From Candidatus Altiarchaeota archaeon (lineage in GTDB: Archaea > Altiarchaeota > Altiarchaeia > IMC4 > QMZM01), in the NCBI GenBank assembly GCA_038891095.1, contig JAWAEV010000001.1, positions 5,248-69,247 of the forward strand: a DNA stretch of 64,000 nucleotides, read 5' to 3'. This document shows positions 12,848-30,183 of this stretch, piece by piece; positions within the stretch are counted from its first letter, which is position 1; each line of letters begins with the position of its first letter. Both the position numbers and the translations under genes were made by a program. The notes beneath the pieces are model-generated. The model was not told where the DNA came from. It made no database searches and worked only from the letters and a program-made list of their open reading frames with translations.

Positions 12848-12950
12848 TTTATTTTGTTGTAATAAAAAACTTATGAAAAATCTCAATTTTAAATTTCAAA
12901 ATCAAATTTCTTACTATGAAAATTCTCGTGACTGGTGGCGCTGGATTTAT
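12848..12950. repeat. 103-bp perfect direct repeat, copy A (promoter-like AT-rich leader plus first 35 nt of an epimerase CDS)
   Basis: Identical base for base to 15791-15893. The CDS part (45 nt) is also identical to 11928-11972. Confidence 0.9.
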
Positions 12951-13962
12951 TGGCTCGCATGTTTGCGAGTTTTATGCAAATTCTAACAAAGAGAATGAGA
13001 TCATTTGCTATGACAACCTTTCTAGAGGAACATTACTTAGAAAAAAAATTTCTCAAAGATATAACTTGAATTTTTTGAAAAATTTTTCTAATGTTAAATT
13101 TGTTAGAGGAGATATAAGAAAATTTGAAAATTTAAAGAAAGTTATGAGAGATGCTGAACTTGTGATTCATGCTGCTGCTCAAACTGCTGTTACATCATCA
13201 GTTGAAAATCCAAGGACTGATTTTGAAATAAATGCTTTAGGAACATTTAATGTCTTAGAAGCTGCGAGGCTCTCAAATAATGATCCGGTTGTGATATATT
13301 GTTCAACTAACAAAGTCTATGGTGAAAATGTAAATTCAATCAAAGTGAATGAGCTGGAAAAAAGGTACGAATTTTCTGATAAAAATTTTTCTGAAGGAAT
13401 TCCTGAGAACTTTCCGATAGATGCTAAAGGACATTCACCTTATGGTGTTTCGAAGTTAGCAGGAGACCAATATTGTAGAGACTATTTTGAGGTCTATGGC
13501 TTAAAAACTCTTGTATTTAGAATGAGTTGTATTTATGGCACTCGCCAGTTTGGAGTTGAGGATCAAGGATGGATTGCACATTTTATAATCTCTTCTATTT
13601 TTGAGAGACCTTTAACAATTTATGGTAACGGCAAGCAAGTTAGAGATGTTCTGTATGTCACAGACTTAGTAGAAGCATTCCACTTAGGTTATGAGAATAT
13701 AAACAAATTTAGTGGAGAAGTTTATAATATTGGCGGAGGTAAAACTAACACGCTATCGATCTTAGAACTTATCGAAATTTTAAGAGAATATAACCTAAAT
13801 CCAAATTATAAATTTTCTTCTTGGAGGCCTTCAGACCAGAAAGTTTTCATTTCAGATATTTCAAAAGCAAAAAAAGAACTTTCATGGAAACCAAAGATTT
13901 CAGCCAAGAGAGGGATTAAATTTTTATTTGAATGGGTCAAAGAAAATAAAAATGTCTTCTAA
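12916..13962 (+). CDS. NAD-dependent sugar epimerase/dehydratase (SDR; CDP-paratose/tyvelose epimerase-like), paralog 2
   Basis: TGGAGFIGS and YGVSKLAGD (YxxxK). 348 aa. Confidence 0.75.
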   Translation: MKILVTGGAGFIGSHVCEFYANSNKENEIICYDNLSRGTLLRKKISQRYNLNFLKNFSNVKFVRGDIRKFENLKKVMRDAELVIHAAAQTAVTSSVENPRTDFEINALGTFNVLEAARLSNNDPVVIYCSTNKVYGENVNSIKVNELEKRYEFSDKNFSEGIPENFPIDAKGHSPYGVSKLAGDQYCRDYFEVYGLKTLVFRMSCIYGTRQFGVEDQGWIAHFIISSIFERPLTIYGNGKQVRDVLYVTDLVEAFHLGYENINKFSGEVYNIGGGKTNTLSILELIEILREYNLNPNYKFSSWRPSDQKVFISDISKAKKELSWKPKISAKRGIKFLFEWVKENKNVF

Positions 13963-14638
13963 AATTTCTGTTATAATTCCTGCATACAATGAAGAGGAGA
14001 GTGTTGGAGAAACTATAAAAAGAATCCAAGAAGTGAACTCTGAATATGAGATCATCGTTGTGGATGATGGTTCTAGAGATAAAACAATAGAGATAGCAAA
14101 AAATTCTGGAGCAAAAGTTTTTAAATTTAAAAAAAATCAAGGAAAAGGTGCAGCTTTTAGGAAAGGAATTCAAGAATCTTCTGGAGATATTATAGTTCAA
14201 ATAGATGCTGATTCACAATTTTTGCCAGAGGAGATTCCAAAATTAATTAAACCTTTGATTGAAGGAGAAGCTGATATAACATTTGGTTCTCGTTTTTTAC
14301 CAGGTTCAAGTGTTGAAAAAGGCTCCTTAAGCTTTCGAAACAGAATTGCCAATATAGTAGATTCTTTTCTTGCAAGTTTTTTTTCAGGAATAAAAATCAC
14401 AGATGTTCAAGCAGGATTTAAAGCTTTTACAAGGGATGCTTTAGAAAAGATAAATTTTCAAGAAAATTCCTTTGCTTATGAGCCAGAAATTGCAATTTTA
14501 GCTGGAAAGAGAAAACTTAGAGTGAAGGAAGTGCCTGTGAGTTATAAAGTTAGAAAAGGCGGAATGTCAAACATAAAATTCTTAAGAGACATTTACTTGA
14601 TAATAAAAACTATGATGAAAACATGGTTGTTGAGATGA
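13928..14638 (+). CDS. GT2 glycosyltransferase, dolichol-phosphate sugar (mannose/glucose) synthase-like (DPM1/AglD-like catalytic domain)
   Basis: ISVIIPAYNEEESVGETI...EIIVVDDGSRDKT...DAD (DxD). The soluble 236-aa form has no TM tail. The true start is probably the M at 13952. Confidence 0.75.
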   Translation: MNGSKKIKMSSKISVIIPAYNEEESVGETIKRIQEVNSEYEIIVVDDGSRDKTIEIAKNSGAKVFKFKKNQGKGAAFRKGIQESSGDIIVQIDADSQFLPEEIPKLIKPLIEGEADITFGSRFLPGSSVEKGSLSFRNRIANIVDSFLASFFSGIKITDVQAGFKAFTRDALEKINFQENSFAYEPEIAILAGKRKLRVKEVPVSYKVRKGGMSNIKFLRDIYLIIKTMMKTWLLR

Positions 14639-14907
14639 AAATTTTATATTTGCAAGAGAATGTTCCAAAAAACTTCAAGTTTTATTCATAAGATAGAAAA
14701 TTATAGATATCTGAATTTAAGTACTTTAATCATTGTATACCTTTTAACTCAATATTTCTTGTCTTCGTCATAAATCAAGTCAGCTGGAATAACTCTAGCT
14801 TATTATGTTATGCCTCAGATTGTAAACAACATTGGCGTAACTCGCAATTTGTAGTTCATGGTTTAAACCCATACAAAGTTTGGAAAGAAGAGGGGATAAA
14901 TTTACCT

Positions 14908-15819
14908 TTGCCTTATAGAGCAGATCATCCACCTTTTCTTTATGTTTTAATGCCTATTTTTGTCTGGATTTGGAACAATATTTGGGCCATTATACTTATA
15001 TTCTTCTTTTTTGATTTCTTAAATTTAATTTTAATTTATTCTTTAGCAAAATTTAAAAAAATTTCCTCTTTACTTTATGTATTTTCTCCATCATTGTTTC
15101 GTGGTTTATTATTCTTAGAAGTTGAGATATTTACTATAGCATTTATATTAGCAAGTATTTATTTTTTCTACAGAAAAAGATATTTCCTCTCTACAATAAT
15201 GTTAGCCCTCTCATTTAATCTACAAATTTTTCCAATAGTTTTGTTTCCAGTCTTGTTGCTCAATATGAATTTAATGAGAGAAAATGAAAATAAATTTTTT
15301 CCTAAAGTTGATTATAAAAAAATATTTAGATACTTAATAATTTTTATCTTAACTTCAGTTATATGCCATCTCTTTTTCTTTCCAGAATGGAAAATTTTTT
15401 ATGAATATAGAACTTTTGAGTATACCTTATCACAAAAAGGTACAGGAATTTGGGTGTTATTACAATTGTCACCTTCTAAATTTTATCTACCTATTTTAAT
15501 CATTTCATTAGTCATCTTTTATTTTTTTACTTATATTAAAAATTTAAATATAGAATCAGGTTATTTTCTTGGGAGTTTACTTTTCATTAGTTTGTTCCCA
15601 AAATTCTCAGTTGATCATTTTATTATCATTTCCACATTATTTCTGATTTGGACACAATGGAGTAAAGCAGATGTATTTTTTTGGATTTTTTTCACGGTCG
15701 GAATATTCTTAGAATTTCTTAGTCTTTCAACAATAGGTATTGTTGATAAATTTACAGGAACGCTAATATCTCTTTCAATTTTAATTGGATTTTATTTTGT
15801 TGTAATAAAAAACTTATGA
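14908..15819 (+). CDS. Polytopic membrane protein (GT-C/DUF2029-like?) with a TTG start; possibly N-terminally truncated
   Basis: At least 8 predicted TM helices. The ORF has no in-frame ATG and the first codon is TTG. The in-frame upstream stretch (14812-14907) has no ATG. The last 9 codons are encoded by repeat copy B. Confidence 0.4.
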   Translation: MPYRADHPPFLYVLMPIFVWIWNNIWAIILIFFFFDFLNLILIYSLAKFKKISSLLYVFSPSLFRGLLFLEVEIFTIAFILASIYFFYRKRYFLSTIMLALSFNLQIFPIVLFPVLLLNMNLMRENENKFFPKVDYKKIFRYLIIFILTSVICHLFFFPEWKIFYEYRTFEYTLSQKGTGIWVLLQLSPSKFYLPILIISLVIFYFFTYIKNLNIESGYFLGSLLFISLFPKFSVDHFIIISTLFLIWTQWSKADVFFWIFFTVGIFLEFLSLSTIGIVDKFTGTLISLSILIGFYFVVIKNL

Positions 15820-15893
15820 AAAATCTCAATTTTAAATTTCAAAATCAAATTTCTTACTATGAAAATTCTCGTGACTGGTGGCGCTGGATTTAT
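15791..15893. repeat. 103-bp perfect direct repeat, copy B
   Basis: Identical to 12848-12950. Confidence 0.9.
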
Positions 15894-16971
15894 AGGATCT
15901 TTTTTAGTTGATAAACTGATTGATAAAGGTCATGAAGTTAGGATTTTTGATAATTTAGAAGAGCAGGTACATCAAGGAAAAATTCCTGATTACTTGAATA
16001 AAAAAGCTGAATTTATTAAAGGTGATGTTCTTGAGTATAATGCTTTAAAGGAAGCAATTAAAGATTGCGAAGTTATTTTTCATGAAGCTGCGATGGTTGG
16101 AGTTGGTCAATCTCAATACCAACCAAAAAAATATGTTGATGCTAACATTAGCGGAACTGCGAATTTATTAGATATTCTTGTAAATGAAGAGCATAATGTG
16201 AAAAAATTGATTGTTGCATCATCAATGTCAATCTATGGTGAGGGTAGCTATGAATGTGAAAATTGCGGCGTTATTGCTCCTGAATTAAGAAGTGAGGAAC
16301 AAATGAAAAAAAATGATTGGGAAGTTCATTGCCCGAAATGCAAAAAAATTTTAAAGCCAATTCCGACAAATGAAGAAAAACCTTTACAAAGTAACTCAAT
16401 CTATGCAATAACTAAAAAAACTCAAGAAGAAATGTGCCTTAATATTGGTAAAACTTATTCTTTGCCAGTAGTTGCTCTTCGCTATTTTAATGTATTTGGT
16501 CCAAGGCAAAGTTTAAGTAACCCCTACACAGGAGTTGTTGCAATTTTCCTTAGCAGAATAAAAAACAATAATCCACCATTAATTTTTGAGGATGGTCTAC
16601 AAAGTAGAGATTTCATTTCTGTGCATGATATTGTTGAAGCAAATATTTTAGCAATGGAAAAAAATTCGGCAAATTATGAGAGCTTTAATGTTGGTTCTGG
16701 AAAAAGGATAACAATACTTGAAATAGCAAATATGTTAATTAAACTCCAAAATTCAAATGTTAAGCCAGAAGTAGTTGGAAAATTTAGAAAAGGGGATGTA
16801 AGACATTGCTTTGCAGATATTTCTAAAATTCAGAGAAAACTTGGTTTCAAGCCAAAATTTTCTTTTATTGATGGAATAAAAGAGCTGATATCATGGAGTG
16901 AAAAAGTGAAAGCGTATGATATGGTTGAGAAGGCAACTCAGGAACTGAAAGAAAAAGGATTACTTTCATAG
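15859..16971 (+). CDS. NAD-dependent sugar epimerase/dehydratase (SDR) paralog 3 with an inserted CxxC...CxxC zinc-ribbon-like segment
   Basis: TGGAGFIGS. Catalytic Ser region SSMSIYGEG, then a roughly 45-aa insert (CENCG...HCPKCKK) before YAITK (YxxxK). Confidence 0.75.
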   Translation: MKILVTGGAGFIGSFLVDKLIDKGHEVRIFDNLEEQVHQGKIPDYLNKKAEFIKGDVLEYNALKEAIKDCEVIFHEAAMVGVGQSQYQPKKYVDANISGTANLLDILVNEEHNVKKLIVASSMSIYGEGSYECENCGVIAPELRSEEQMKKNDWEVHCPKCKKILKPIPTNEEKPLQSNSIYAITKKTQEEMCLNIGKTYSLPVVALRYFNVFGPRQSLSNPYTGVVAIFLSRIKNNNPPLIFEDGLQSRDFISVHDIVEANILAMEKNSANYESFNVGSGKRITILEIANMLIKLQNSNVKPEVVGKFRKGDVRHCFADISKIQRKLGFKPKFSFIDGIKELISWSEKVKAYDMVEKATQELKEKGLLS

Positions 16972-18519
16972 TTTACTTTCAACTCTTTTCATAAGTAAAT
17001 TTGTAATGCGTAGAGAAATTTCTCTTGGAAATTTTAACTTTCTCAAAATAGCAGAGATTATTAAAACATCCTCTATCTTAAGCGCTTTAAATAACAGCAG
17101 AAATATTGAATAGGATAATGCCAAAAAAATTCCTGATGTTGTAAGAGAGAGTAAAGAATCCTGAATTAACTTCTTTGTTATTAGAACTATTGGTAAAGTT
17201 AAAAAAGCTGAAATTAAAACTTTCGATACTCTAGAAGAGGAAATTTTTATTTTTATTATTTTTTTAGTTTCAGAATATGAAAGCAAAAGCATTAATAAAG
17301 AGGATAACACTGTGGCAATTGCAGCACCCTCAATTTTTAATATAGGTATTAATAGTAGATTCGCAATTACATTAAAAACAGAGGCTATTCCTTTGATAGA
17401 TGCAACTTTTTTTGGATTTCCAGAAGAGCTCAATATTGTTGTGAATAAACTATCTATTCCATATAAAAACATTGAAAATGCCATTATTTGAAATGCCAAA
17501 GCACCTTCTTCATATTCTCCTCTAAATAAAACAACTAAAATTTCTCTTGGAAAAGAGATAAAAACGGTGAAAATAGGTATAAAAAAAAGAAAGAAATTCT
17601 CCAAGAGATACGAGGATAATTTAGCTGCACCTTCTAAGTCTTTTCTACCGAAATGTTCTGTAATTATCGGAGTAAAAATTGCAAGAAATGCTCCAAAGAA
17701 AATTAGCTCTACAGCAGCAGTTAGATTTGCAATGTAGTAAACTCCCAAAGCAGAAAAACCAACAAAAATTCTTATCATGAACATATCTGCCCAGCCAAGA
17801 ATATTATCTGCTGTTGAAGTCAATGAAAGTGGAAGTCCAAATTTAAAAAATTTTTTTGTTAAATCAAAACTAAACTTTCCATCAAGTCCAAATTTTTTTA
17901 GAACATAAATAGCAGATAACAAAGTTGGGAGTAGAACTGACATAGTTAAGACGAAAACAACATTTTGTATTGAAATAGAAATTCCAAAGATGATAAGGAG
18001 TGCAATAAAAATTGGTCTAAAAATTTCTAAAAGCAATCCAAATAACCTTGATATATGAGGCCTTCTAAAGCCAGAAATAACAGAATTGAAAAAAAGGTAA
18101 AAAGAAAAAACTATAAAAAGAAAACAAACAAGTAAAAATTCTTCTCTCTTCAATGAAAGAAAATTTGGAAAGAAGTTATTTAAGAATAAAAAAATGGATA
18201 AAGATGGAAGAATTAGAAGTATTACTAAAATTATACCTGTATATAAAGAAGAATTAACCTTTTCTTTATCACCTCTGCCACGATAGAATGCAATATATCT
18301 AGAAACAGAAGCAGGTATGCCAAAGAGTAGTATATGAGCAGAGAAGGTTACAATCCCCCAAGCTAATGTGAAAATTCCATAGTTTTCAGTTGAGATGTAT
18401 TTTGTTAGAATCATATTAAACAGCCAACCAGCAAATTTACCAAGAATACTAAGAGATAGTATAAAAATTCCTGTTTTCAATATAATCTTGTTTAACTTTT
18501 CGAAATTTTCTTGTGGCAT
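16966..18519 (-). CDS. Wzx-like oligosaccharide flippase (MOP superfamily polysaccharide biosynthesis protein)
   Basis: 517 aa with about 14 TM helices and MATE/Wzx-like topology. Located in a glycan gene cluster. Confidence 0.7.
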   Translation of the reverse strand: MPQENFEKLNKIILKTGIFILSLSILGKFAGWLFNMILTKYISTENYGIFTLAWGIVTFSAHILLFGIPASVSRYIAFYRGRGDKEKVNSSLYTGIILVILLILPSLSIFLFLNNFFPNFLSLKREEFLLVCFLFIVFSFYLFFNSVISGFRRPHISRLFGLLLEIFRPIFIALLIIFGISISIQNVVFVLTMSVLLPTLLSAIYVLKKFGLDGKFSFDLTKKFFKFGLPLSLTSTADNILGWADMFMIRIFVGFSALGVYYIANLTAAVELIFFGAFLAIFTPIITEHFGRKDLEGAAKLSSYLLENFFLFFIPIFTVFISFPREILVVLFRGEYEEGALAFQIMAFSMFLYGIDSLFTTILSSSGNPKKVASIKGIASVFNVIANLLLIPILKIEGAAIATVLSSLLMLLLSYSETKKIIKIKISSSRVSKVLISAFLTLPIVLITKKLIQDSLLSLTTSGIFLALSYSIFLLLFKALKIEDVLIISAILRKLKFPREISLRITNLLMKRVESKL

Positions 18520-18555
18520 ATCTTAATATTTTATCTAACAGGATATAAATTAATT

Positions 18556-19515
18556 ATGCCGAGAATTTCTGTAATAATTCCAGCATACAATGAAGAGAAA
18601 TACATTTCAAGATGTTTAGATTCCTTATTGAAGCAAACTTATGAAGATTTTGAGATTATAGCGATAGATGATGGTAGTAAAGATAAAACCTCAGAGATCC
18701 TGAAAAGTTATGAAAAAAAATACAAAAAAATAAAGGTTTTGTCTCAAGAGCATAAAGGTCCTGGAGAAGCCAGAAATTTTGGAGCAAAAAAAGCGATTGG
18801 TGAGATTCTCATTTTTGTTGATGCTGATATGGAGTTTGATAAGGATTATGTGAAAAATTTAACAAAACCGATATTAGAAGGAAAGTGCATAGGAACAACA
18901 CATGCTTATGAATATGTAGCTAATAAAGAGAATATCTGGGCAAGATGCTGGGGAACGGCGAACAGAAGTAAAATAGATGAAAATGCTGTTGAATCCAGAT
19001 TTTTCAGAGCAATATTAAAGGAGGAATTATCAAATGTTGGTTTCTTTGAGCCAAGAACAGGATATTTTGACGATTCTAACACTTTTAAGAAAATTAACAA
19101 AAAAGGATTAGTTGTGAGAGATGCTATCTGCTATCATTACAATCCTTCTTCTTTAGCCGAAGTTTTTTTTCATTCTGCTTGGATTGGCGGTTCTGTGCTC
19201 ATTGAGTTAAAAAACAATCTGAGAAGACTTAAAAAACCCAAGTTTTTTTTACCAGTTGTGACAATGTCGTTTCTATTGATTTTTGGCATTTTTTTTAAAC
19301 AGAAATTGTTAGAAATACTTCTAATTTCATCTTTTTTGATGATAATGCTACTGACGCTAAACAGAGTAGTTAAAGAAAAATATGTAAATTATCTGCTATT
19401 CTTACCAATTTTTTACATTGTAAAATTTTTCGGGTTGATTTATGGTGCTATAAGACAGATTCCAAACATAATCATTAAAAAAATTCATGGTTTAGAGCTT
19501 GTATATAAATACTAA
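18556..19515 (+). CDS. GT2 glycosyltransferase with C-terminal TM segments
   Basis: ISVIIPAYNEEKYISRCLDSLLKQTYEDFEIIAIDDGSKDKT and DAD. The ATG at 18556 is preferred over the TTG at 18511. Confidence 0.8.
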   Translation: MPRISVIIPAYNEEKYISRCLDSLLKQTYEDFEIIAIDDGSKDKTSEILKSYEKKYKKIKVLSQEHKGPGEARNFGAKKAIGEILIFVDADMEFDKDYVKNLTKPILEGKCIGTTHAYEYVANKENIWARCWGTANRSKIDENAVESRFFRAILKEELSNVGFFEPRTGYFDDSNTFKKINKKGLVVRDAICYHYNPSSLAEVFFHSAWIGGSVLIELKNNLRRLKKPKFFLPVVTMSFLLIFGIFFKQKLLEILLISSFLMIMLLTLNRVVKEKYVNYLLFLPIFYIVKFFGLIYGAIRQIPNIIIKKIHGLELVYKY

Positions 19516-19516
19516 A

Positions 19517-20575
19517 ATGCCAAAATTATCAGTAGTTATATTAAATTGGAATGGAAGCCATTATACTATTCCATGTATAAAATCCTTGCTAAATTCCTCA
19601 TTTCAAGATTTTGAAATTGTACTAGTGGACAATGGCTCTGAGAGAAAGGATATTAAAGCTATAGAAAATGAATTTGAAGGAAATGAAAAAATAAAAATTA
19701 TAAAGAATAGTGAGAACAAAGGCTTTGCTGAAGGCAATAATATCGGCGTAAGAAATTCCTCTCCTGAAAGTAAATATGTTCTACTGCTGAATAATGATGC
19801 TGTTGTAAAGAAAGATTACCTAAAGGAGATGGTTGAAGCAATTGAAAGTAATAGTAGCATAGGAGCAGTTGGCATTGGTTATAGACCAAATTCAAAAGAT
19901 GTGTTGCTGCATACTCTCTCTTTAGTTGGCTTTGATGTTGTTTATTATAACGAAAAATTTGTAAATGAGGGCATTTATCCAAAATTATATATCTCTGGAG
20001 CAAGATTTATGTTCAATAAATCTCTTATCAAAGAACCTTTTGATCCAGAGTATTTTATTTATTGCGAAGATGTCTATTTAGGTTGGTTAATTTGGCTTAA
20101 AGGTTATAAAGTAATTGCAAAACATACAAAAAATCCTGAAGCAAGAATGATTCACTATGGTGAGCATGTATTGCAAAAGAAAAAATCTTCTTTTTCAGTT
20201 TTCTTAGGAACAAGAAATAGACTTCTTAACATTTTTCTTTTCTATGAATTAAGAACTTTAATAAAATTATTGCCACTAATCTTCATAGCATATTTTATAT
20301 ATTTAATTTCAGAACCAAAATTCATTCTAACAAGAATGAAAGCATATCTTTGGTTCCCTACTAACTTTAAAAAAATTTTAGAAAAAAGAAAAAAAATTCA
20401 AATGCAAAGAAAAGTTCCTGATGAGGAAATTATAAAAGTGATGAGTTGTAAATTCAAAAGCTATTATGATGTGAAAAATCCTTTTTTTAGAGGAGTTATA
20501 ACGTTGATAAATAAAGTTTTTTATGTGTATTGCAAAATGGTTAATTTAAAAACAATAGATATGATTATTTTTTAG
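19517..20575 (+). CDS. GT2 glycosyltransferase (rhamnosyl/galactosyltransferase-like)
   Basis: LSVVILNWNGSHYTIPCIKSL...FEIVLVDNGS...NND. The start at the M 2 nt after the upstream stop is preferred. Confidence 0.75.
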   Translation: MPKLSVVILNWNGSHYTIPCIKSLLNSSFQDFEIVLVDNGSERKDIKAIENEFEGNEKIKIIKNSENKGFAEGNNIGVRNSSPESKYVLLLNNDAVVKKDYLKEMVEAIESNSSIGAVGIGYRPNSKDVLLHTLSLVGFDVVYYNEKFVNEGIYPKLYISGARFMFNKSLIKEPFDPEYFIYCEDVYLGWLIWLKGYKVIAKHTKNPEARMIHYGEHVLQKKKSSFSVFLGTRNRLLNIFLFYELRTLIKLLPLIFIAYFIYLISEPKFILTRMKAYLWFPTNFKKILEKRKKIQMQRKVPDEEIIKVMSCKFKSYYDVKNPFFRGVITLINKVFYVYCKMVNLKTIDMIIF

Positions 20576-21140: not shown

Positions 21141-21147
21141 TTTACTT

Positions 21148-21825: not shown

Positions 21826-21831
21826 TTTAAT

Positions 21832-22995: not shown

Positions 22996-23102
22996 ATCTT
23001 TGTTAGTAAATTCTCCTTACTTAACACTGTAACCTCTCTTAACAAGTTCTATAGTAATATTTGAACCTATGAAACCTGCACCACAAGTTACAAGAACTTT
23101 AC

Positions 23103-24407
23103 TCATTTTGGCATTATTCTTCTATACTCCTCTAAAATCTCTCTCCCAATTTTTTCAGGAGAAAATTCATTTTTGATTTTCTCCTTACAGTTTTTGCTCA
23201 TCTCCTTATAAACATTAGAATTTTCAAGAATATATCTAATAGCTCTCGCTAATTCATCAATTTCAAGATTTTTTAATAAAATTCCATTTTTCCCATCTTC
23301 AACAATCTCGGGATTTCCACCAACATTACTTGCTATTATAGGAATTCCATAACTACATGCCTCAAGTAGCATCCTTGAGAGAGGTTCATAAAAAGTACAC
23401 GGCAATACTACTAAATTTGTAATTGAATAATACTCCTTCATATACTCTGGTTTAACAAAGCCAACAAATTTTACTTTATCTTCCAATTTATATTCCTCTA
23501 CTATTTTTTCTAAAGATCTATAATAAGGGGTTTTAAGTTTAGAGTAACTCCCTCTTCCTACCACTAAAAATACAGAGTCATCTATATATTTCATCGCTTT
23601 TATTACTATATGAACGCCCTTCTCTTGAGTTACTCTACCTGCGTAGAGGATAATTTGCTTATTTTTGGATATACCTAATTTTTCTTTTAGATTTGTTTTT
23701 ACTTTTTCTTGAAGAGGAATAGGGTTGTGTATAATCTTAAGTTTATTCTCATTAAATCCATTTTCAATAAAAAGTTTTTTTATTGCTTCACTAACTGGGA
23801 ATAATTTATCTACTTTTTTAGTAAAGAATTTTCGCTCTTTCATATGAAGGACACCATAGATAAACTTTATGAAACCGACCAGATATTTAATAAGCCCTAT
23901 TCCTTTTTCTTTTTTTATAACACAACGGAGCATTTTTTTGGAAGAGCATTTTGTACATGAATTTCCTTTGTAATCAACACAATTGCCCGTATAGCAAATC
24001 CAAGGACTATTTACAGTCGCAAAACATGGAATTCCTCTTATTTTTAAAATCAATGAAGTTATGATGATTGATTCCATATTGAGAAGATGCACTACATCTG
24101 GCCTAATTTGCTTAATAAATTTATTTGTATGATACGCTATTTGCAGGTACATAAATTCAAGATTGCAGATATGAGATATAAAAGGAAGATCAATATAAAT
24201 TAGAGGGATACGAAAAATTTTTATACCATCCATCTCCTCTTCTTTATATTCTTTAGTGGTAAATGTTAACACAAAAACTTCCTGACCCAAATCTCTTAAA
24301 GCTTTTGTAATATAATACGCAGAAATTTGTCCTCCACCAGTTATATCAGGATAAAACCTTCTTGATATGAATAGAATTTTCAATTTTCTGCCTTTCTTTT
24401 TTTGCAA
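23103..24407 (-). CDS. GT4 glycosyltransferase with a Cys-rich insertion in the N-terminal domain
   Basis: EPLSRMLLEACSYGIPIIASNVGG (GT4 signature). Insert PWICYTGNCVDYKGNSCTKCSSKKMLRC has 6 Cys. Confidence 0.75.
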   Translation of the reverse strand: MQKKKGRKLKILFISRRFYPDITGGGQISAYYITKALRDLGQEVFVLTFTTKEYKEEEMDGIKIFRIPLIYIDLPFISHICNLEFMYLQIAYHTNKFIKQIRPDVVHLLNMESIIITSLILKIRGIPCFATVNSPWICYTGNCVDYKGNSCTKCSSKKMLRCVIKKEKGIGLIKYLVGFIKFIYGVLHMKERKFFTKKVDKLFPVSEAIKKLFIENGFNENKLKIIHNPIPLQEKVKTNLKEKLGISKNKQIILYAGRVTQEKGVHIVIKAMKYIDDSVFLVVGRGSYSKLKTPYYRSLEKIVEEYKLEDKVKFVGFVKPEYMKEYYSITNLVVLPCTFYEPLSRMLLEACSYGIPIIASNVGGNPEIVEDGKNGILLKNLEIDELARAIRYILENSNVYKEMSKNCKEKIKNEFSPEKIGREILEEYRRIMPK

Positions 24408-24569
24408 TTAAAATTTTATTGGAAATGTTAATATTAAATCCCTCTCTTTTTAATATGTCAATGATATCTTCAAGATAGATTAAATTTGACCATTCAAGTA
24501 TTACCTTTTGTGTTTTTTTTAAAATTTCGTTTGATCCTCTGAGGACATTTAACTCTGCCCCTTCAACAT

Positions 24570-25190
24570 CTATATTTTTAGTAAATCTATAATTGGTTCT
24601 TTTTCCAATGCCTCATTCAAAGTTATAAGTTCGATATTTTCAAAACCATTTCCTGGCAATTTTTTAATTATAGAATGAGTTTCTGAGCCCCCTAAATAAA
24701 GTTTTACTTTCCCTTTCCTATCCGAAACTGCTAAGTTATGTATTATTATATTCTTGCATTCATTTACTTCTTTATTTTTTTTAAGTAACTTAAAGTTGTT
24801 GGAACATGGCTCAAAAGATATTACTTTCTTAGCATTAAATCCTTTTGAAGATAGAACTGAAACTAAGCCAACATGGGCTCCAACATCCACTACAATGCTC
24901 CCTCTCTTTAATTTTTTCAGTTCATAGATATCGTCCAATACTACTTCAAAAAAGATAGTATACGCGTCTAAAGGGTGATATATGCATATATCATCCTTTA
25001 ATTGTATCTTCAATGGTAAACTCCCTATCTTGAAATACCTAAATATATACTTAGTTACATTTCTAGAAAGTATTCTTGAGAAAATACCAAATGAGAGATA
25101 GTAACATAATGTCATGAATTTATGGAATATTAACCAACCTTTCGTTTCTTTTTTATAGAATTCTCTTAACAATTTTAAGTTTTCAAGCAT
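24570..25190 (-). CDS. FkbM-family methyltransferase
   Basis: VVDVGAHVG...FEP (FkbM motif). 206 aa. Confidence 0.65.
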   Translation of the reverse strand: MLENLKLLREFYKKETKGWLIFHKFMTLCYYLSFGIFSRILSRNVTKYIFRYFKIGSLPLKIQLKDDICIYHPLDAYTIFFEVVLDDIYELKKLKRGSIVVDVGAHVGLVSVLSSKGFNAKKVISFEPCSNNFKLLKKNKEVNECKNIIIHNLAVSDRKGKVKLYLGGSETHSIIKKLPGNGFENIELITLNEALEKEPIIDLLKI

Positions 25191-26259
25191 TTTGCAGATT
25201 ATCTATCGCTTTTTTAATTCCTTCAATAAATTTATCTTCAGAAAATTTTTTTGCTCTTTCTTCGCATGCTTTTCTCATTTCTTTAGCTCTTTCTGGAGTT
25301 AGCCATTCAACAGCTTTTATTATATTCTCTACTGTTGGTTCAATTAGTACGCCTGTTTTTCCATGAATGATTGTTTCTTTCATGCCTCCATCATTAGAGC
25401 CAATACAGGGTTTCCCTGAAGACATTGATTCTAAAGGGATAATCCCAAAATCCTCTTTATAAGAGACATATATTGTTGCTATACATCTACCATAAAGCTC
25501 GCTTAGCTCTTTCTCACTTGATACCCAACCAATTACTTTAATATTTTCATATCCTTTAGCTAAGGATTTTATCTCTTCATATGATGGCCCTCCACCTGCT
25601 ACAATAAGCTTTTTATTAGGCATTTTTTGGAATGCTCTCACAACCAAATCGACTCTTTTTATTGGATCTAACCTTGCAGTAGAAAGATAAAAGTCACCAT
25701 GCTCAATAAATTTAAATTTTTTAATATCTACTGGTGGATAAACGACATCTGATTCCCTGCCATAGAAGCTCTTTATCCTATCTTGAACATTTTTTGAGTT
25801 TGCTATTATCTTATCAACATTTCTAACACATTTCTGATCTTCTGCTCTAAGAAAATATGCAAAAATCTTGAATAAGTGCCTTTTTAAAAATTTTCTTTTT
25901 TTAAGTTCATCTTCATAGAGGTCATAAAGCCATCTTATTGGAGCATTACAGTACCATATATTTGGATGATATTTCTTCGCTACACTTAGAGAATGCGATC
26001 CAAAAAAGAGGTAAGCATCATAATCCTCTGCTATTTTTAGATTACTAAATTTAAATCTTATGTAAAGAGAATTTAAACCATGTCTCAATCTTTTCCTTGT
26101 GAATGACACCAGGTTATAATCTCTGAACTCGTTAAATGTTGTTTCCTTGATATAATAACCAGAATATATATCAGCATTGAAATATTTTGCTAATGTAATA
26201 ATTTCTCTTTCAACCCCTCCAAAATTTTCAAGTCTGTCAACGAGAATTGCAATTTTCAT
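25183..26259 (-). CDS. GT4 glycosyltransferase
   Basis: EDFGIIPLESMSSGKPCIGSNDGG signature. Confidence 0.8.
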   Translation of the reverse strand: MKIAILVDRLENFGGVEREIITLAKYFNADIYSGYYIKETTFNEFRDYNLVSFTRKRLRHGLNSLYIRFKFSNLKIAEDYDAYLFFGSHSLSVAKKYHPNIWYCNAPIRWLYDLYEDELKKRKFLKRHLFKIFAYFLRAEDQKCVRNVDKIIANSKNVQDRIKSFYGRESDVVYPPVDIKKFKFIEHGDFYLSTARLDPIKRVDLVVRAFQKMPNKKLIVAGGGPSYEEIKSLAKGYENIKVIGWVSSEKELSELYGRCIATIYVSYKEDFGIIPLESMSSGKPCIGSNDGGMKETIIHGKTGVLIEPTVENIIKAVEWLTPERAKEMRKACEERAKKFSEDKFIEGIKKAIDNLQNA

Positions 26260-27521
26260 CTCCCAATTCCTTTATAATCAATACCTAAATTTTGGATTTT
26301 TTTCTTGTTAAGACAATTTTTTCCATCAATAATTACCTTTATATTATTTTCTCTCAATTTTCTTAAGTTCATTCTTTTGAATTCTCTATGATCTGTTGCT
26401 AAGATAAGGTAGTTAACTTTTTTTAATAATTCATCTAAGGAGGGAACACTACTTTTCTCTGGAACTAAAGGATCGAAAGAAAAAACATCTGCTCCTTTTT
26501 TCTTTAAAATTTCTAAAATTTTCAATGCAGGACTTTCTCTTATGTCGTCAACATTTGCTTTGTAAGCTAAACCCAAAACTCCAATTTTTTTTCCTTTTAA
26601 ATTCCCAACTTTTTGTTCTAGCAAGCTTACTGTATATTGAGGCATTGAGTTATTGATTTCTCTTGCTAACTTCAGGAATTTATGATTAAAGCCGATATTT
26701 TTTGCCTTTTCAATTAGATAGTAAGGATCAACAGGGATGCAATGGCCACCTACACCACATCCAGGATAGAATGCCATGAAACCAAAAGGTTTTGTTTTTG
26801 CACCCTCTATAACTTCTTTGATGTCAATTTCAAATTTATCGAAAGATTTTGCTAATTCGTTTATGAAAGCTATATTTATATCTCTGAAAGTATTTTCAAC
26901 TATTTTGACTGCTTCTGCAGCTTTTACAGTGCTAAGTTCTTTCACTTCTGCATTTATAATCTCCCTATAAAATTTAGCTGCTTTTTTTCTTCCTCTTTTA
27001 CTTAGAGCTCCGAGGACTCTTGGGATATTCTCTATATTCCACTTTTTATTTCCAGGATCAATTCTCTCAGGGCAATGAGCTAAGAAGAAATCTTTTTCAG
27101 ATTTTAAACCAGAATTTTCAAGAATTTTCTTTACTATCTCTCCAGTTGTTCCTGGATAAATTGTTGATTCTATTATCACTAAGTGACCTTTCTTTAAAAA
27201 TTTTGAGATTTCTCTTGCTGCTGACTTTAAAGGCTCTAAATCTGGCTTATGTTTTTTATTTACTGGAGTAGGAACACAAACAATAATGATATCTACATTT
27301 TTAATCTTACTGAAATCTCTTGTTGCGAAAATTTTCCCCTTACTCTTTTTTACTTCTCTCTCTAATTTTTTATCTTTTATATGGCTTATTCCTTCGTTAA
27401 CTTTTTTTACAATTTCAGGATTTTTATCTATGCCAATAACATCATAACCTTTTTTTGCACATAAACATGCCAATGGCAAGCCAACATAACCTAAACCAAT
27501 TATAGCTATACTTTTGCTCAT
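26256..27521 (-). CDS. Nucleotide-sugar dehydrogenase (UDP-N-acetyl-D-mannosamine/UDP-GlcNAc 6-dehydrogenase-like)
   Basis: IAIIGLGYVGLPLA Rossmann start, catalytic Cys region GGHCIP. 421 aa. Confidence 0.8.
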   Translation of the reverse strand: MSKSIAIIGLGYVGLPLACLCAKKGYDVIGIDKNPEIVKKVNEGISHIKDKKLEREVKKSKGKIFATRDFSKIKNVDIIIVCVPTPVNKKHKPDLEPLKSAAREISKFLKKGHLVIIESTIYPGTTGEIVKKILENSGLKSEKDFFLAHCPERIDPGNKKWNIENIPRVLGALSKRGRKKAAKFYREIINAEVKELSTVKAAEAVKIVENTFRDINIAFINELAKSFDKFEIDIKEVIEGAKTKPFGFMAFYPGCGVGGHCIPVDPYYLIEKAKNIGFNHKFLKLAREINNSMPQYTVSLLEQKVGNLKGKKIGVLGLAYKANVDDIRESPALKILEILKKKGADVFSFDPLVPEKSSVPSLDELLKKVNYLILATDHREFKRMNLRKLRENNIKVIIDGKNCLNKKKIQNLGIDYKGIGR

Positions 27522-27559
27522 AACTATAAAATTTATCTTTTTAGGTTAAATAGCTAAAT

Positions 27560-28525
27560 ATGAGGGTTTTGATTTTTGGAGCTGAAGAAGGAAAGTTTCC
27601 AAGCTTTTCTTATCAATGTAAAAAAGCATTTGAGGAGTTAGGCCATGAGGTAAAAGTTTTAAGCTATAGAAAATTCAAGTTTCATAAGATAAAATTCACA
27701 AATTTTTTACTTAACAAATATCTTCTTCACTTTGCTGAAAACTATAATCCAGATTTGTTATTTGTTAATAAAGGTGCAAACATTCTTCCAGGCATTATTG
27801 AAAAACTATCCAAAAGAGGAATTAAAACAGCTAACTGGACATTAGACGATCCTTTTGGAAATTTCAATAAAGAGAATAGGATTAACAACATTCGGGAATA
27901 TGATTACTTCTTTGTTTTTGATCCTTATTATTTACCTGAGCTTAGAGATATCAATCCTAATTCTTACTATCTTCCATGCTGTGCTTCAAAACATGTACAT
28001 ACTGAGATAATTCCTTTAAATGAGAGGGAGTATAAATATGATGTCTCGTTTATTGGTTCTCATGAAAAAAAGAGGGAAAAACTCTTTAGCGAGTTAATAG
28101 ATTATAATCTTAGAATTAGCGGTTATAGATGGGAGAAAATTAAAAGTAAGCTGAAAGAGAAAATAGATAAAAAAATTTATATTGGTTATGAAATGTGCAA
28201 GGAGTTAAATTTGTCAAAGATAAATTTGAATGTTCACAGTGCGCATTCCTATAGAGGAGCAAACTTAAGAACTTTTGAAATTCCTGCAACAAATAGTTTT
28301 ATGTTATCTGACTATATTGAAGAGATTAAAAATTTATTCAGAATAGGCAAGGAAGTTATTTGCTACCATAATGTTTCTGAACTAAAGGAGTTAATAGATT
28401 ACTATCTAAACAAGGAGAATGAAGAGGAAAGAAATAAAATTACAAAAGCAGGGCATGAAAGAGTTTTGAAAGAGCATAGTATGAAGCACAGGATTGAAAG
28501 AATAGTTAGAATAGCAGGTATTTAA
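27560..28525 (+). CDS. CgeB-like/DUF3880-type putative glycosyltransferase
   Basis: Soluble 321-aa protein on the opposite strand within the glycan island. Only weak resemblance to the CgeB family (spore-coat glycosylation). Uncertain. Confidence 0.4.
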   Translation: MRVLIFGAEEGKFPSFSYQCKKAFEELGHEVKVLSYRKFKFHKIKFTNFLLNKYLLHFAENYNPDLLFVNKGANILPGIIEKLSKRGIKTANWTLDDPFGNFNKENRINNIREYDYFFVFDPYYLPELRDINPNSYYLPCCASKHVHTEIIPLNEREYKYDVSFIGSHEKKREKLFSELIDYNLRISGYRWEKIKSKLKEKIDKKIYIGYEMCKELNLSKINLNVHSAHSYRGANLRTFEIPATNSFMLSDYIEEIKNLFRIGKEVICYHNVSELKELIDYYLNKENEEERNKITKAGHERVLKEHSMKHRIERIVRIAGI

Positions 28526-30183
28526 TTTTCTATTCTTTTTAGTATCAATATAGTTGGATTAACAAATTCAGGATTTGGTTTTAGAGTAAGAGAGCGAAGT
28601 ATAACACTATCTAACTTCTCTATTGATCCAAATCCCGGTGAGCCTCCACTATTGTAAATCCCTCTCCCAAATTTTGCAACTATTCTGTAATTTTTTCTTT
28701 CATTTATTAAGTCTGAGAAGTATTTTGTTCTTTCTGGAAATGCGTTAGTATCAACGAGGTATCTTTCATAATATAAACTACTTAAGATGATGTAATCTGA
28801 TTTTCTTGATTCCAATCCACTTATGAAATCTTCAATAGATCCATTGTTTTTTGGTTGGAATACTGTTATATTTTCTGGTATATTTGGATTATAGTAATAT
28901 AACTCAATCGTTGAATTTTTATCAATGTTTCTCTCTATCCATTCCGTTGCGAGATATCTTGAGTCATTAATGAAGAGTATGTCAGCAGAGATAGTATAAC
29001 AGAAAGAGTAGGGTATAATGAATGCTAGCACAAAGATTGTAATTTTCTTTTTAAATTTTAGCATATCATAGAAAAATTTTCCATTTAAAATTGCTATAAA
29101 TGGAAGTAAAGGGACAGTATATCTCATCGGTGCAAAATTCCATTTTCCTACTATGAGGTAAAATAGAACAATAAATAAGAAAAATAACAGAGTATATTTA
29201 TATGAATTATCTTCTATTCTGATTAATTTGAGTGCTGTATAAGTTAAAGCAATAATAGAAACTAAAAATAATGGTAATCCCATACCATTTATCAAGTTTA
29301 CTATATGAGATATATAACCGGGATAAGGATTTCTTATTCCTTTGTATAGTTGAACATCAGTTATCGCGGTAATTACATCTTTTTTAAAATTTGAAAAATC
29401 GATTATTGCAAATGGAGTTCCAATTAAAAAACCTATGAATATCATTGAAAATCCTAAGGAAAATTGTTTATTAATAAGAGAATTAAGCGAAATTTTTTCT
29501 TTGAACAGCAGATGAGAGATAAAAAAGAGGAGTATCATCAAACCAGCTGTGTATTTAGTTGAGATAGCAAAACCTATAAATAAACCTGAGAGTAGATAGT
29601 ACCCCATATCCTGTTTTTTGATAAGTTTTATTATGAACAACATAGATAAGATAATCCAAAATGTCGTTGATATGTCAACTGTTGCGAAATGAGAGAAATT
29701 TACAAAACTCATTGTAAATGCTAAAAGAATAGATGAGATAATTGCTGATCTCTTGTTGTATACTTCGCGTGCTATGAGATAAACAAAAAGGACAATTAAT
29801 GCTCCCATAACCACTGAAATAGCTCTTGAAATAAGAAGCGCATTTGTCATTAATTTAAATTGTTCATTTGTATAGGGAGGTTTGAGAGTGAGAGGTATTT
29901 TATCTAACTCGCCGGTTAGTTTTAGTTTGAGATAATAGGGCAACAAAGCCAGTCCGACAGTATATTTGTGTAGTGAGCCTGATATGAAATTATGTGGGTT
30001 TGGATCCATTTGCTTAGCCATAGTTAGTACATAGATTGTAACCTCATCTGGATGCCATTTATATGGAGTCCCCCACCAAATACCAATAACATTTAAGAGA
30101 AAACTTATTATGCAAATTACTATTATGATTTTATTTTCTTTACTTCTTAATTTTTCAGTTAATAAAGAAAATTTTATATTCAT
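28522..30183 (-). CDS. GT-C glycosyltransferase of the PMT/ArnT type (GT39/GT83-like, lipid-carrier dependent)
   Basis: 553 aa and polytopic. First extracytoplasmic loop carries HPDEVTIY (PMT-type DE motif). Hydrophobic core typical of the PMT_2 family. Confidence 0.6.
   Translation of the reverse strand: MNIKFSLLTEKLRSKENKIIIVICIISFLLNVIGIWWGTPYKWHPDEVTIYVLTMAKQMDPNPHNFISGSLHKYTVGLALLPYYLKLKLTGELDKIPLTLKPPYTNEQFKLMTNALLISRAISVVMGALIVLFVYLIAREVYNKRSAIISSILLAFTMSFVNFSHFATVDISTTFWIILSMLFIIKLIKKQDMGYYLLSGLFIGFAISTKYTAGLMILLFFISHLLFKEKISLNSLINKQFSLGFSMIFIGFLIGTPFAIIDFSNFKKDVITAITDVQLYKGIRNPYPGYISHIVNLINGMGLPLFLVSIIALTYTALKLIRIEDNSYKYTLLFFLFIVLFYLIVGKWNFAPMRYTVPLLPFIAILNGKFFYDMLKFKKKITIFVLAFIIPYSFCYTISADILFINDSRYLATEWIERNIDKNSTIELYYYNPNIPENITVFQPKNNGSIEDFISGLESRKSDYIILSSLYYERYLVDTNAFPERTKYFSDLINERKNYRIVAKFGRGIYNSGGSPGFGSIEKLDSVILRSLTLKPNPEFVNPTILILKRIEN

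Follow-up and report, generated by a model that had tools for sequence, protein, structure and literature searches.

A PMT/ArnT-clan GT-C glycosyltransferase in an archaeal surface-glycan island and its possible role in glycan modification

The window, as we call the whole 64,000-nucleotide stretch of Candidatus Altiarchaeota DNA analyzed here, encodes a 553-aa GT-C glycosyltransferase within a surface-glycan biosynthesis island (Table 1). This protein belongs to the ArnT/PMT clan and may well be a catalytically intact enzyme that adds a lipid-phosphate-borne sugar to a surface glycan outside the membrane, a role for which we consider the case evenly balanced. The enzyme would act on the external side of the cytoplasmic membrane, taking one sugar from a dolichyl- or polyprenyl-monophosphate-sugar, with D46/E47 and D170 serving as its pair of catalytic acids and K210 holding the lipid phosphate. 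The sugar would go onto the surface glycoconjugate made by the surrounding 24-kb island. A glycan is a more likely acceptor than bare protein, and it would be a protein-bound N-glycan, or a polysaccharide or lipid-linked oligosaccharide, rather than bare Ser/Thr. Such a logic would resemble that of AglD/AglR/AglS in Haloferax, GacI/J/K/L in streptococci and the Gtr systems. Fold, family, residue conservation, gene coupling and synteny are demonstrated here, while the type of donor, the membrane side, the sugar and the acceptor are inferred. The host is archaeal: the window contains LSU rRNA, SSU rRNA and RNase P RNA of archaeal type. The carrier of the island is an uncultured DPANN-type archaeon.

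Table 1. Features of the window discussed in the text
Feature	Coordinates	Strand	Basis
Surface-glycan biosynthesis island (~24 kb)	11928..36175	.	Pfam scans
SDR sugar epimerase/dehydratase, 348 aa, first triad gene	12916..13962	+	Pfam Epimerase, 166.7 bits
GT2 without TM, polyprenyl/dolichyl-phosphate sugar synthase-like	13928..14638	+	Pfam Glycos_transf_2, 129 bits
PIG-M/PimE (GT87)-like GT-C, third triad gene	14660..15819	+	Homologues and family model
Wzx/MOP-type flippase candidate, 517 aa	16966..18519	-	Pfam Polysacc_synt, 71.9 bits, plus MatE and MurJ
Intact GT-C glycosyltransferase, PMT_2 (ArnT/PMT) clan, 553 aa, ATG start	28522..30183	-	Pfam, model
HPDEVTIY motif, residues 44-51 of the 553-aa GT-C	30031..30054	-	Residue indexing; start of first external loop
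UDP-galactopyranose-mutase (UGM)-like flavoenzyme, 472 aa	30180..31598	-	NCBIfam NF005548, 457 bits (cut-off 389)
Second PMT_2 GT-C paralogue, remnant, 300 aa	31623..32525	-	Comparison with L005
Thr-rich, Cys-rich secreted or anchored protein, 439 aa	54960..56279	+	Composition

The original prediction of a PMT/ArnT-type GT-C with an HPDEVTIY motif in the first external loop is borne out by profile searches and structural modeling. The protein matches both Pfam PMT_2 (E=8e-19, 68.9 bits, cut-off 26.1) and Pfam PMT (E=3.8e-13, 50 bits, cut-off 22.7) far beyond chance, with the higher score for PMT_2. It is already annotated at NCBI under the name "glycosyltransferase family 39", in a 100% identical entry entitled 'MAG: glycosyltransferase family 39 protein [Candidatus Altiarchaeota archaeon]'. 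The AlphaFold2 model (pLDDT 86.5, pTM 0.90) has a GT-C fold followed by an alpha/beta soluble domain of ~130 residues after the last TM, and its matches among PDB structures were GT-C enzymes only (AglB, ALG9/12, ArnT and Pmt4). When the family profile was compared with the PDB, the best match was yeast Pmt1 (E=6.6e-14, 54.7 bits, over TM1-TM7), ahead of AglB (34.6 bits) and ArnT (28.7 bits).

The HPDEVTIY motif directly follows the first transmembrane segment (TM1), a hydrophobic stretch of residues 19-37, and lies just ahead of a helix formed by residues 47-57 in the model. Its D46-E47 are a putative acidic pair for catalysis. The acidic loop proved to be conserved, with D46 kept in at least 90% of 27 homologues, among which R120 and K210 are invariant. 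In profile alignments, D46-E47 correspond to D77-E78 of Pmt1 and to P-D55-E of ArnT, R120 to R138 of Pmt1, D170 to the LLD/TLD aspartate (D197 of ctPmt4, D158 of ArnT), and K210 to the conserved STK/LTK lysine. The ctPmt4 enzyme uses K244 to bind the Dol-P phosphate and has D84/D197 placed for metal-ion binding (PMC12705809). The DE motif had been taken earlier as a mark of protein O-mannosylation. That reading is not supported, since PDE and D170 align equally to D55 and D158 of ArnT, and the motif thus marks the clan. Among the sequence and structural features of the protein that we examined, none specified the acceptor.

Among characterized clan members, those that combine a DE/PDE motif with the conserved lysine take their sugar from monophosphate-linked monosaccharides. 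This argues against the improbable reading that the enzyme glycosylates a membrane lipid or lipoglycan anchor in the manner of ArnT, or that it ligates or polymerizes a lipid-linked oligosaccharide. Such functions would agree with the ArnT-like PDE motif and the soluble domain past the last TM, with a conserved D407-x-R409...W415...N419 segment that aligns to the AglB region past TM13, and with the Pfam scans, which detected neither a Wzy-type polymerase nor AglB in the window. However, the 553-aa protein has no WWD motif, scores 20.6 bits with the NCBIfam archaeal STT3 model (cut-off 450), and has no match to the NCBIfam ArnT model. Of the NCBIfam models, only TIGR03663 ('flippase activity-associated protein Agl23') gave a noteworthy match (49.5 bits, residues 106-231). 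Purified Agl23 translocated lipid-linked oligosaccharide in vitro (PMC11182771), and the 553-aa protein could likewise be mainly a Dol-P-sugar facilitator or scramblase, as proposed for Agl23 of Haloarcula hispanica, and not a transferase. We regard this as highly improbable: the score is far under the TIGR03663 cut-off of 126.25, the conservation of the putative catalytic acids points to catalysis, and the island already has a Wzx-type flippase candidate.

The genomic context is that of glycan biosynthesis. The island is bounded by housekeeping genes, one for NAD synthase (at 11194) and one for ribose-5-P isomerase (at 36130). Within it, Pfam scans revealed five SDR epimerases/dehydratases, one UDP-sugar dehydrogenase, three methyltransferases, a Wzx-like flippase and the UGM-like enzyme, together with three GT2, six GT4-type and one Glyco_trans_1_2 proteins and three GT-C genes. 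The UGM-like gene and the 553-aa GT-C gene are joined by an ATGA overlap (AAATGAAT) and are translationally coupled. The UGM-like product matches Pfam GLF, Amino_oxidase and NAD_binding_8, and its top PDB matches are eukaryote-type UGMs (E=1e-28), with the GRxGSxRY..NQDH region aligned. On the strength of this coupling, the sugar transferred by the 553-aa enzyme may be a furanose; the UGM-like enzyme may also do no more than supply a cytoplasmic transferase, and we know of no characterized lipid-phosphate-galactofuranose donor. The second PMT_2 paralogue has lost its catalytic core by an in-frame deletion. At the orthologous position, an 89%-identical relative (L005) encodes a 539-aa PMT_2 protein, of which the remnant corresponds to residues 1-42 (100%) and 275-539 (80%), and lacks residues 43-274 with the PMT_2 match at 66-216.

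The GT2 at 13928-14638 had been proposed as a DPM1-like enzyme that could make the donor. It is indeed soluble, with no hydrophobic TM segment, and its best solved relative is the P. furiosus Dol-P-Man synthase (5mlz, E=6.7e-28, residues 9-225), with ArnC second. Its dedicated partner, however, is the GT-C at 14660-15819, to which it is translationally coupled and linked by conserved synteny. The epimerase-GT2-GT-C triad recurs in three other contigs (L083, L084 and L085), where the orthologous products are 46-75% identical. There the SDR orthologues (71-75% identity) lie directly 5' of the GT2, and no PMT_2 gene was called within 7 kb of the triad; across triads the GT2 overlaps or abuts its GT-C partner gene. 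An orthologue of the flippase candidate (65% identity) adjoins the triad in L083. Since the sole DPMS-like GT2 in the window is bound by synteny to the other GT-C, no candidate donor source for the 553-aa enzyme was found in the window, a point against its proposed role. The island contains two lipid-P-sugar/GT-C modules, or three if the gutted paralogue is counted. Orthologue alignments of the GT2 open only at residue 9-12, so translation probably begins at the ATG at 13952.

The NCBIfam matches of this GT2 are all below their cut-offs: AglJ (TIGR04182, 156 bits, cut-off 325), DolP-hexose transferase (104), PpgS (93) and ArnC (84). With AglJ as the best match and no phosphoglycosyl-transferase initiator detected by Pfam scans in the island, the GT2 could be an AglJ-like initiator rather than a donor maker for a GT-C, placing the first N-glycan sugar onto Dol-P for extension by the GT4 and GT2 enzymes of the island. 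AglJ does that job in Haloferax (PMC3871713), and AepG, which is also DPMS-like, charges Dol-P for exopolysaccharide synthesis (PMC9943897). We find this doubtful in view of the sub-threshold AglJ score and of the GT2 overlapping or abutting the GT-C gene within a triad shared with three other contigs, an arrangement expected of a donor-synthase/GT-C pair.

The partner GT-C gene is frameshifted in this assembly at a T3 run (14755-14757), and one added T yields a 386-aa ORF; homologues of 380-418 aa also cover the stretch 5' of the annotated start. No Pfam model reached threshold (GT87 16.7 bits vs 25), and distant matches of the family bear Pfam GT87 and PIG-M. The family is very small, archaeal and metagenomic, and has an invariant Asp in the first loop, inside YxxDC. 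Its model (pLDDT 82.4) best matched GPI mannosyltransferase I with Dol-P-Man bound (9wno_A, TM 0.67/0.69), followed by PIG-U, PimE, ALG6 and ALG3.

As a general logic, the predicted route of a lipid-P-sugar and a GT-C is supported by homologues of the 553-aa enzyme, as in 19 of 60 genomic loci a DPMS-like GT2 gene is found no more than 10 kb from the GT-C (adjacent in 3). Synteny around the GT-C is retained in L005. Neighbors in a 44%-identical relative (L001) are a GT2 with DUF2304 (the GacI/GacJ pairing), an FAD oxidase, epimerases and Wzx; those in L009 are a DPMS-like GT2, an SDR, a radical SAM enzyme, methyltransferases and a carbamoyltransferase; and P0008 is located within a Wzx/Wzy/GT4 polysaccharide cluster. 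Two distant bacterial homologues (P0018 and P0022) come directly after the gene for the major pilin in type IV pilus operons of the order PilB-PilT-PilC-PilS-PilR-pilin-GT2-MT-GT-C, which suggests that some family members glycosylate proteins.

These pilin operons bear on whether the 553-aa enzyme is a protein O-glycosyltransferase, moving a hexose from Dol-P-sugar to Ser/Thr of surface proteins, for example in the poly-Thr linkers of the 54960-56279 product. If so, archaea would have a PMT-like O-glycosylation route; archaeal PMT-domain proteins and the same speculation on them have already been published (PMC4973528; 10.1101/2023.02.01.526569). The top PDB sequence match, Pmt1, is a true protein O-mannosyltransferase, with functionally important residues aligned to the acidic motif, R120 and K210, and no archaeal Ser/Thr O-glycosyltransferase was found in the literature searched. 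The proposed acceptor is Thr-rich as predicted (20.7% Thr vs 2-6% in every other ORF of the window), with two poly-Thr/Ser tracts (residues 211-262 and 320-355) and no Pfam family. Its N-terminus, charged and then hydrophobic with a Glu, forms the single hydrophobic segment and loosely resembles a type IV pilin-like signal. The supposed link to the GT-C did not stand: 25 kb that include housekeeping genes separate the ORF from it, and none of the 82 homologue loci scanned has a Thr-rich ORF. Furthermore, the motif and residues align equally to ArnT, which acts on lipid A; MIR and PMT_4TMC domains are absent from all 27 family members; the operon partner is a sugar mutase and the neighbors build glycans; the pilin-linked homologues are bacterial and just 24-26% identical; and AglS, the characterized archaeal enzyme called distantly PMT-related, modifies a glycan (PMC3871713; PMC4973528). 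As a whole we consider the protein O-mannosylation reading possible but unlikely, preferring transfer to a surface glycan.

PIG-M (GPI mannosyltransferase I, GT50) and PimE (GT87) are among the best structural matches of the 14660-15819 family, which, unlike them, is below Pfam thresholds, is rare, and shares its operon with SDR and GT2 genes. With GT39 (yeast Pmt1/Pmt2/Pmt4; M. tuberculosis PMT), the 553-aa enzyme shares equivalents of the DE motif, R138, the LLD aspartate and the STK lysine, its best solved relative and a Pfam PMT match above cut-off, but it carries the C-terminal alpha/beta domain in place of MIR and PMT_4TMC. ArnT (GT83, undecaprenyl-P-L-Ara4N:lipid A transferase, PDB 5ezm/5f15) likewise has a GT-C fold with a C-terminal soluble domain (Foldseek TM ~0.5 against our model), P-D-E after TM1, a second Asp in xTxD and the TK lysine, and receives its monophosphate-linked monosaccharide from a DPMS-like GT2, ArnC. 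The profile score to ArnT is, however, just 28.7 bits, its NCBIfam model is unmatched, and the context here is a glycan island; to our knowledge, lipid A is not expected in archaea. The likeness to Agl22/Agl23 of H. hispanica is a weak TIGR03663 match over the PMT_2 core, whose score excludes membership, and Agl23 is described as a flippase. In three-component systems (GacI/J/K/L; Gtr; GT136), a TM-less GT2 makes sugar-P-polyprenol with a DUF2304 helper, a Wzx/MATE flippase and a polysaccharide-decorating GT-C (10.1101/180810; PMC11127046). These are bacterial. The scans of the window revealed no DUF2304 gene, and the likeness is by gene set (as in L001). AglS of Haloferax volcanii, reportedly a distant relative of PMTs (PMC4973528), transfers mannose to a tetrasaccharide bound to Asn and is likened here by description rather than sequence. 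The AglD/AglR/AglS system nevertheless provides the archaeal scheme, in which a GT2 makes DolP-sugar, a Wzx-like protein aids flipping, and an external membrane transferase puts the final mannose on the Asn-linked glycan outside the cell (PMC3871713).

The protein that the original prediction had described as a PMT-type GT-C, that is, a member of the membrane glycosyltransferase fold class using lipid-linked donors, is encoded by an ORF of 553 aa. An identical protein, from a contig of 382,704 bp, is already public at NCBI under the name 'MAG: glycosyltransferase family 39 protein [Candidatus Altiarchaeota archaeon]', and with it both the gene and its assignment to a broad family. The 553-aa GT-C matched Pfam PMT_2 (PF13231; the ArnT/PMT-like GT-C clan) over residues 111-235 with 68.9 bits against a gathering threshold of 26.1, and 27 of 27 family members matched the same model. 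Pfam PMT (PF02366, the N-terminal domain) was matched with 50 bits against a cut-off of 22.7, only over profile positions 84-238 of 245, with the DE region outside. The HPDEVTIY motif occupies residues 44-51, directly after the first hydrophobic segment (residues 19-37). In an alignment of 27 sequences D46 is conserved in at least 90%, and R120, G204, A206, K210 and P257 are invariant. The predicted family assignment by profile HMM and the conservation of the acidic loop are both borne out by these results.

An AlphaFold2 model built from the 27-sequence alignment (pLDDT 86.5, pTM 0.90) has, after TM1, an external loop whose two helices start directly after D46, about ten more TM helices and, from approximately residue 420, an alpha/beta domain at the C-terminus. 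Foldseek comparison of this model with the PDB returned GT-C enzymes only (AglB, ALG9/12, STT3, ArnT, PglB, Pmt4, and Pmt1/2), with TM scores of 0.44-0.56 that single out no nearest enzyme. As judged from the model, the GT-C fold class is certain.

The best solved sequence for the family profile is yeast Pmt1 (E=6.6e-14); the alignment places D46-E47 on D77-E78, R120 on R138, D170 on the LLD aspartate and K210 on the SSK lysine. In the model, D46-E47 lies just ahead of the first loop helix. In ctPmt4, K244 (the counterpart of K210) binds the Dol-P phosphate, and D84/D197 are placed for a metal ion (PMC12705809). The HMM alignment on ctPmt4 puts HPDE on the upstream HPDQ and not on FDE. The profile also aligns to ArnT, where the counterparts are a literal P-D55-E behind TM1, aspartate D158 of HFNTLD and the lysine of LTK. 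Because ArnT, whose substrate is lipid A, shares the same PDE, the motif is not GT39-specific, and by these alignments it marks the ArnT/PMT clan and not protein O-mannosylation. The family and the motif of the original prediction therefore stand, but the motif does not serve as a mark of PMT enzymes.

The clan was further resolved by searches for domains and signatures of its better known members. PMT_4TMC (PF16192), the C-terminal four-TM module supplying phosphate ligands, had no match at E<=1 in the query and 27 homologues. The MIR beta-trefoil domain, lumenal between TM7 and TM8 in eukaryotic GT39 members, had no match in the query or the 27 members, and residues 256-290 of the model form short loops and helices only. 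No curated ArnT (GT83) model was present among the NCBIfam matches at E<=0.01, and the ArnT PDB entry matched the family profile with 28.7 bits only; a lipid acceptor or a ligase role, of which the residues in common with ArnT might be reminiscent, is in our estimate quite unlikely. The sole NCBIfam match of note was Agl23 (TIGR03663), at 49.5 bits short of the cut-off of 126.25, and we regard an Agl23-like flippase role as highly improbable. An oligosaccharyltransferase role was rejected for the missing WWD motif and the negligible STT3 score (AglB/STT3 model TIGR04154, 20.6 bits against 450). Since PMT_4TMC and MIR are absent, WWD is lacking and the STT3 score is negligible, the protein is assigned to the PMT_2-clan GT-Cs only, and it is not a demonstrable GT39 PMT, ArnT, Agl23 or AglB.

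The second element of the predicted route was a DPM1-like soluble GT2 as the maker of the donor for the PMT-type GT-C. This protein matches the Pfam GT2 family with 129 bits, and its best solved relative is the Dol-P-Man synthase of P. furiosus (5mlz, E=6.7e-28, residues 9-225), followed in the PDB by ArnC over residues 10-226. The alignment to DPMS takes in the GT-A catalytic domain and the interface-helix region. Its best NCBIfam models all stay below their equivalog cut-offs: AglJ (156 bits against 325), DolP-hexose transferase (104 against 375), PpgS (93 against 370) and ArnC (84 against 529). With the P. furiosus enzyme as best match and no TM segment, the DPM1-like soluble label is fair. 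The two other GT2s of the island are unlikely donor synthases, with DPMS, ArnC and AglJ scores of at most 42 bits.

The membrane-protein ORF directly downstream of the DPM1-like GT2 proved to be part of a longer gene. Homologues found with its stop-to-stop translation are 380-418 aa long and cover the upstream start-less stretch, while a small ORF in another frame matches their N-terminus; with one T added to the T3 run (14755-14757), an ORF of 386 aa is regained. The gene is thus a frameshifted member of a very rare GT-C family of about 390 aa that has no Pfam model, and its membership in this family, with its GT-C fold, rules out a DUF2304/GacJ-type helper. The model of the family (pLDDT 82.4) gave as its best Foldseek match GPI mannosyltransferase I with Dol-P-Man (9wno_A, TM 0.67/0.69, prob 1.00), followed by PIG-U, PimE, ALG6 and ALG3. 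The first loop carries an invariant D within YxxDC, and by this model the family would share both structure and a first-loop acidic residue with GT50/GT87 enzymes. Its Pfam GT87 score is short of the threshold. An exhaustive profile search among 1.84 billion representatives found 5 clusters only at E<=1e-10, with a weak tail of matches to the Pfam families GT87 and PIG-M. In every case the family is encoded in an operon with an SDR epimerase and a GT2.

Orthologues of the epimerase-GT2-GT-C triad were identified in three unrelated contigs (L083, L084, and L085), with an epimerase of 349 aa, a GT2 of 227-229 aa and a membrane protein of 387-393 aa, at 71-75%, 58-75% and 46-53% identity to the window proteins, respectively. 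The triad genes of L083 and L084 overlap or all but abut, and in L085 a methyltransferase gene stands between those for the GT2 and the membrane protein. No PMT_2 gene was called within 7 kb of the triad in any of the three, and L083 also retains a 517-aa Wzx-like gene (65% identity) and a 334-aa GT2 (52% identity). Because the triad recurs without a PMT_2 gene nearby, and because of the fold of the partner, we assign the GT2 to the triad GT-C, and predict from gene order that it is the dedicated donor synthase of this PIG-M/PimE-like enzyme and not of the PMT_2 enzyme. The proposed pairing with the PMT-type GT-C is accordingly abandoned, the latter lying 14 kb away.

Coordinates and products of the features discussed in the window
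Coordinates	Strand	Feature	Size	Remarks
6089-8266	+	FG-GAP/beta-propeller protein	725 aa	upstream of island
13928-14638	+	DPM1-like GT2		triad member; probable start 13952
14660-14773		small ORF		frame other than that of 14908-15819
14660-15819	+	triad GT-C		frameshifted
14908-15819		membrane-protein ORF	289 aa	NCBI name: hypothetical protein
15859-16971	+	SDR epimerase/dehydratase
16966-18519		Wzx-like flippase candidate
18511-19515		GT2
19499-20575		GT2
28522-30183	-	553-aa GT-C	553 aa	PMT_2 clan
30180-31598	-	UGM-like flavoprotein	472 aa	NCBIfam NF005548, 457 bits vs cut-off 389
31623-32525	-	second PMT_2 paralogue remnant	300 aa	membrane ORF, upstream of UGM-like gene
54960-56279	+	Thr-rich protein	439 aa
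58898-59171	-	RNase P RNA gene

The start codon of the 553-aa GT-C gene overlaps the stop codon of the UGM-like gene (ATGA; AAATGAAT). The product of the latter aligns to eukaryote-type UDP-galactopyranose mutases (E=1e-28), including the WxxxR, FxR and GRxGSxRY..NQDH segments. The presence of such a eukaryote-type UGM-like enzyme in an archaeon hints that the surface glycan contains a furanose. At the position of the paralogue remnant, the 89%-identical syntenic locus L005 encodes a 539-aa PMT_2 protein; from the window copy residues 43-274 have been lost by an in-frame deletion, with its junction near 32397-32400. In L005 itself the UGM-like gene is broken into pieces of 287 aa and 134 aa. 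Two of the three GT-C genes of the island are damaged in this assembly, one by the frameshift and one by the deletion. The contig of the syntenic locus, JAWCMS010000006.1 (L005/L008), is labelled Pacearchaeota and the window record Altiarchaeota, and one of the two taxonomic labels is probably wrong.

The island (11.9-36.2 kb) includes five SDR enzymes, a UDP-sugar dehydrogenase, three GT2 and six GT4-type enzymes, a Glyco_trans_1_2 protein, three methyltransferases and Wzx; AglB, Wzy and a phosphoglycosyl-transferase were not found within the window. A putative lipid-P-sugar synthase, a Wzx-like flippase candidate and GT-C enzymes are all encoded here, and by gene content the island is predicted to hold the set of a three-component extracytoplasmic glycosylation system. 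In one SDR enzyme, the epimerase/dehydratase next to the triad, an insert of about 35 residues, with two CxxC pairs (CENC...CPKC) and a zinc-ribbon-like look, interrupts the Pfam domain. The FG-GAP protein may be a surface protein. The window is archaeal, with archaeal LSU and SSU rRNA, tRNA-Ala and archaeal RNase P RNA at 58.9-64 kb, and its coding part has about 30% G+C. Beside the 16S-tRNA(Ala)-23S operon, the RNase P RNA gene follows the 23S rRNA gene on the same strand after some 40 nt; a 5S rRNA was not detected anywhere in the window. A promoter and terminator scan gave counts close to the shuffled expectation, with a sigma-70 consensus that is not applicable to archaea.

Homologues of the 553-aa GT-C occur in varied genomic contexts. 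In Altiarchaeota locus L001 (44% identity) the GT-C is accompanied by a GT2, DUF2304, a methyltransferase, an FAD oxidase, a radical SAM protein, two epimerases and Wzx; GacI and GacJ form such a pair of GT2 and DUF2304 protein (10.1101/180810). In Aenigmatarchaeota locus L009 (35% identity) two PMT_2 genes stand beside a DPMS-like GT2, an SDR, a radical SAM enzyme, methyltransferases and a carbamoyltransferase, the gene for the last (15834-18548) carrying an intein/LAGLIDADG insertion, and the homologue P0008 lies within a Wzx/Wzy/GT4 cluster. Across the 60 genomic loci with adequate flanks, a DPMS-like GT2 lies within 10 kb in 19, within 3 kb in 10 and adjacent in 3, counts that are descriptive and stand without a control set. 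Two high-GC bacterial loci (L006 and L086, 24-26% identity) have PilB-PilT-PilC-PilS-PilR-pilin-GT2-MT-GT-C operons, in which the GT2-methyltransferase-PMT_2 GT-C set (5979-9563 in L006, 6957-10647 in L086) follows the major pilin gene and is a candidate pilin glycosylation module. These operons are circumstantial evidence that some family members act on pilins.

A protein acceptor within the window had been proposed in the Thr-rich ORF. Its product is indeed Thr-rich (20.7% Thr), with two poly-Thr/Ser linkers, one of them at residues 211-262, between Cys-rich modules, but the gene lies 25 kb from that of the 553-aa GT-C, beyond FtsY, prefoldin, RadA, TyrRS, TruD and other housekeeping genes. 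The N-terminus (KSQGATEYLLNYGWAIILIAAIGV) has a loose likeness to the type IV pilin-like signals of archaea. The protein has no Pfam match, and because its N-terminus matched no Pfam pilin or class III signal model even at E<=1, 'pilin-like' is an impression only. Poly-Thr or Thr-rich ORFs were found near GT-C homologues in 0 of 82 loci scanned, a weak negative for a protein acceptor. Direct protein O-glycosyltransferase activity of the 553-aa GT-C, to which the Pmt1 alignment and the pilin operons would be congenial, is on balance unlikely. The same holds for a broader proposal, improbable when taken as a whole, that the 553-aa GT-C or its family is the missing archaeal protein O-glycosyltransferase, with which DPANN archaea would transfer a Dol-P-monosaccharide, possibly a furanose, to the Thr-rich linkers of surface proteins, pilin-like ones among them, with the same activity on type IV pilins in the bacterial pilin-operon homologues and, separately, the rare triad defining a new GT-C family. 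Archaeal enzymes that attach O-linked sugars to Ser/Thr appear to be unidentified; if a PMT-clan GT-C does act on protein, it would supply such an enzyme and inform the question of how eukaryotic O-mannosylation arose. Archaeal PMT-domain proteins and speculation on O-glycosylation have already been published (PMC4973528; 10.1101/2023.02.01.526569), and Haloarcula has been proposed to use DolP-hexose in making its extracellular N- and O-glycans (PMC11182771).

The reading that we favour, with middling confidence, is that the 553-aa GT-C would carry out an extracytoplasmic decoration step, from lipid-P-sugar through GT-C, on the glycan made by the island, and a furanose may be involved. We are far surer of the enzyme class (a GT-C with a monophosphate-lipid donor) than of the acceptor. 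Three things are gained: the pairing of the GT2 is corrected to another GT-C; a rare PIG-M/PimE-like GT-C family, so far unannotated, is recognized together with its conserved operon; and a DE/PDE motif in the loop should not be taken to identify a protein O-mannosyltransferase. The locus presents an uncultured Altiarchaeota-type archaeon with several lipid-phosphate-sugar/GT-C modules that would finish surface glycans outside the cell, a pattern already known in haloarchaea and bacteria. The decoration proposed here parallels that by AglD/AglR/AglS (PMC3871713), by GacI/J/K/L (10.1101/180810) and by the three-component systems (PMC11127046).
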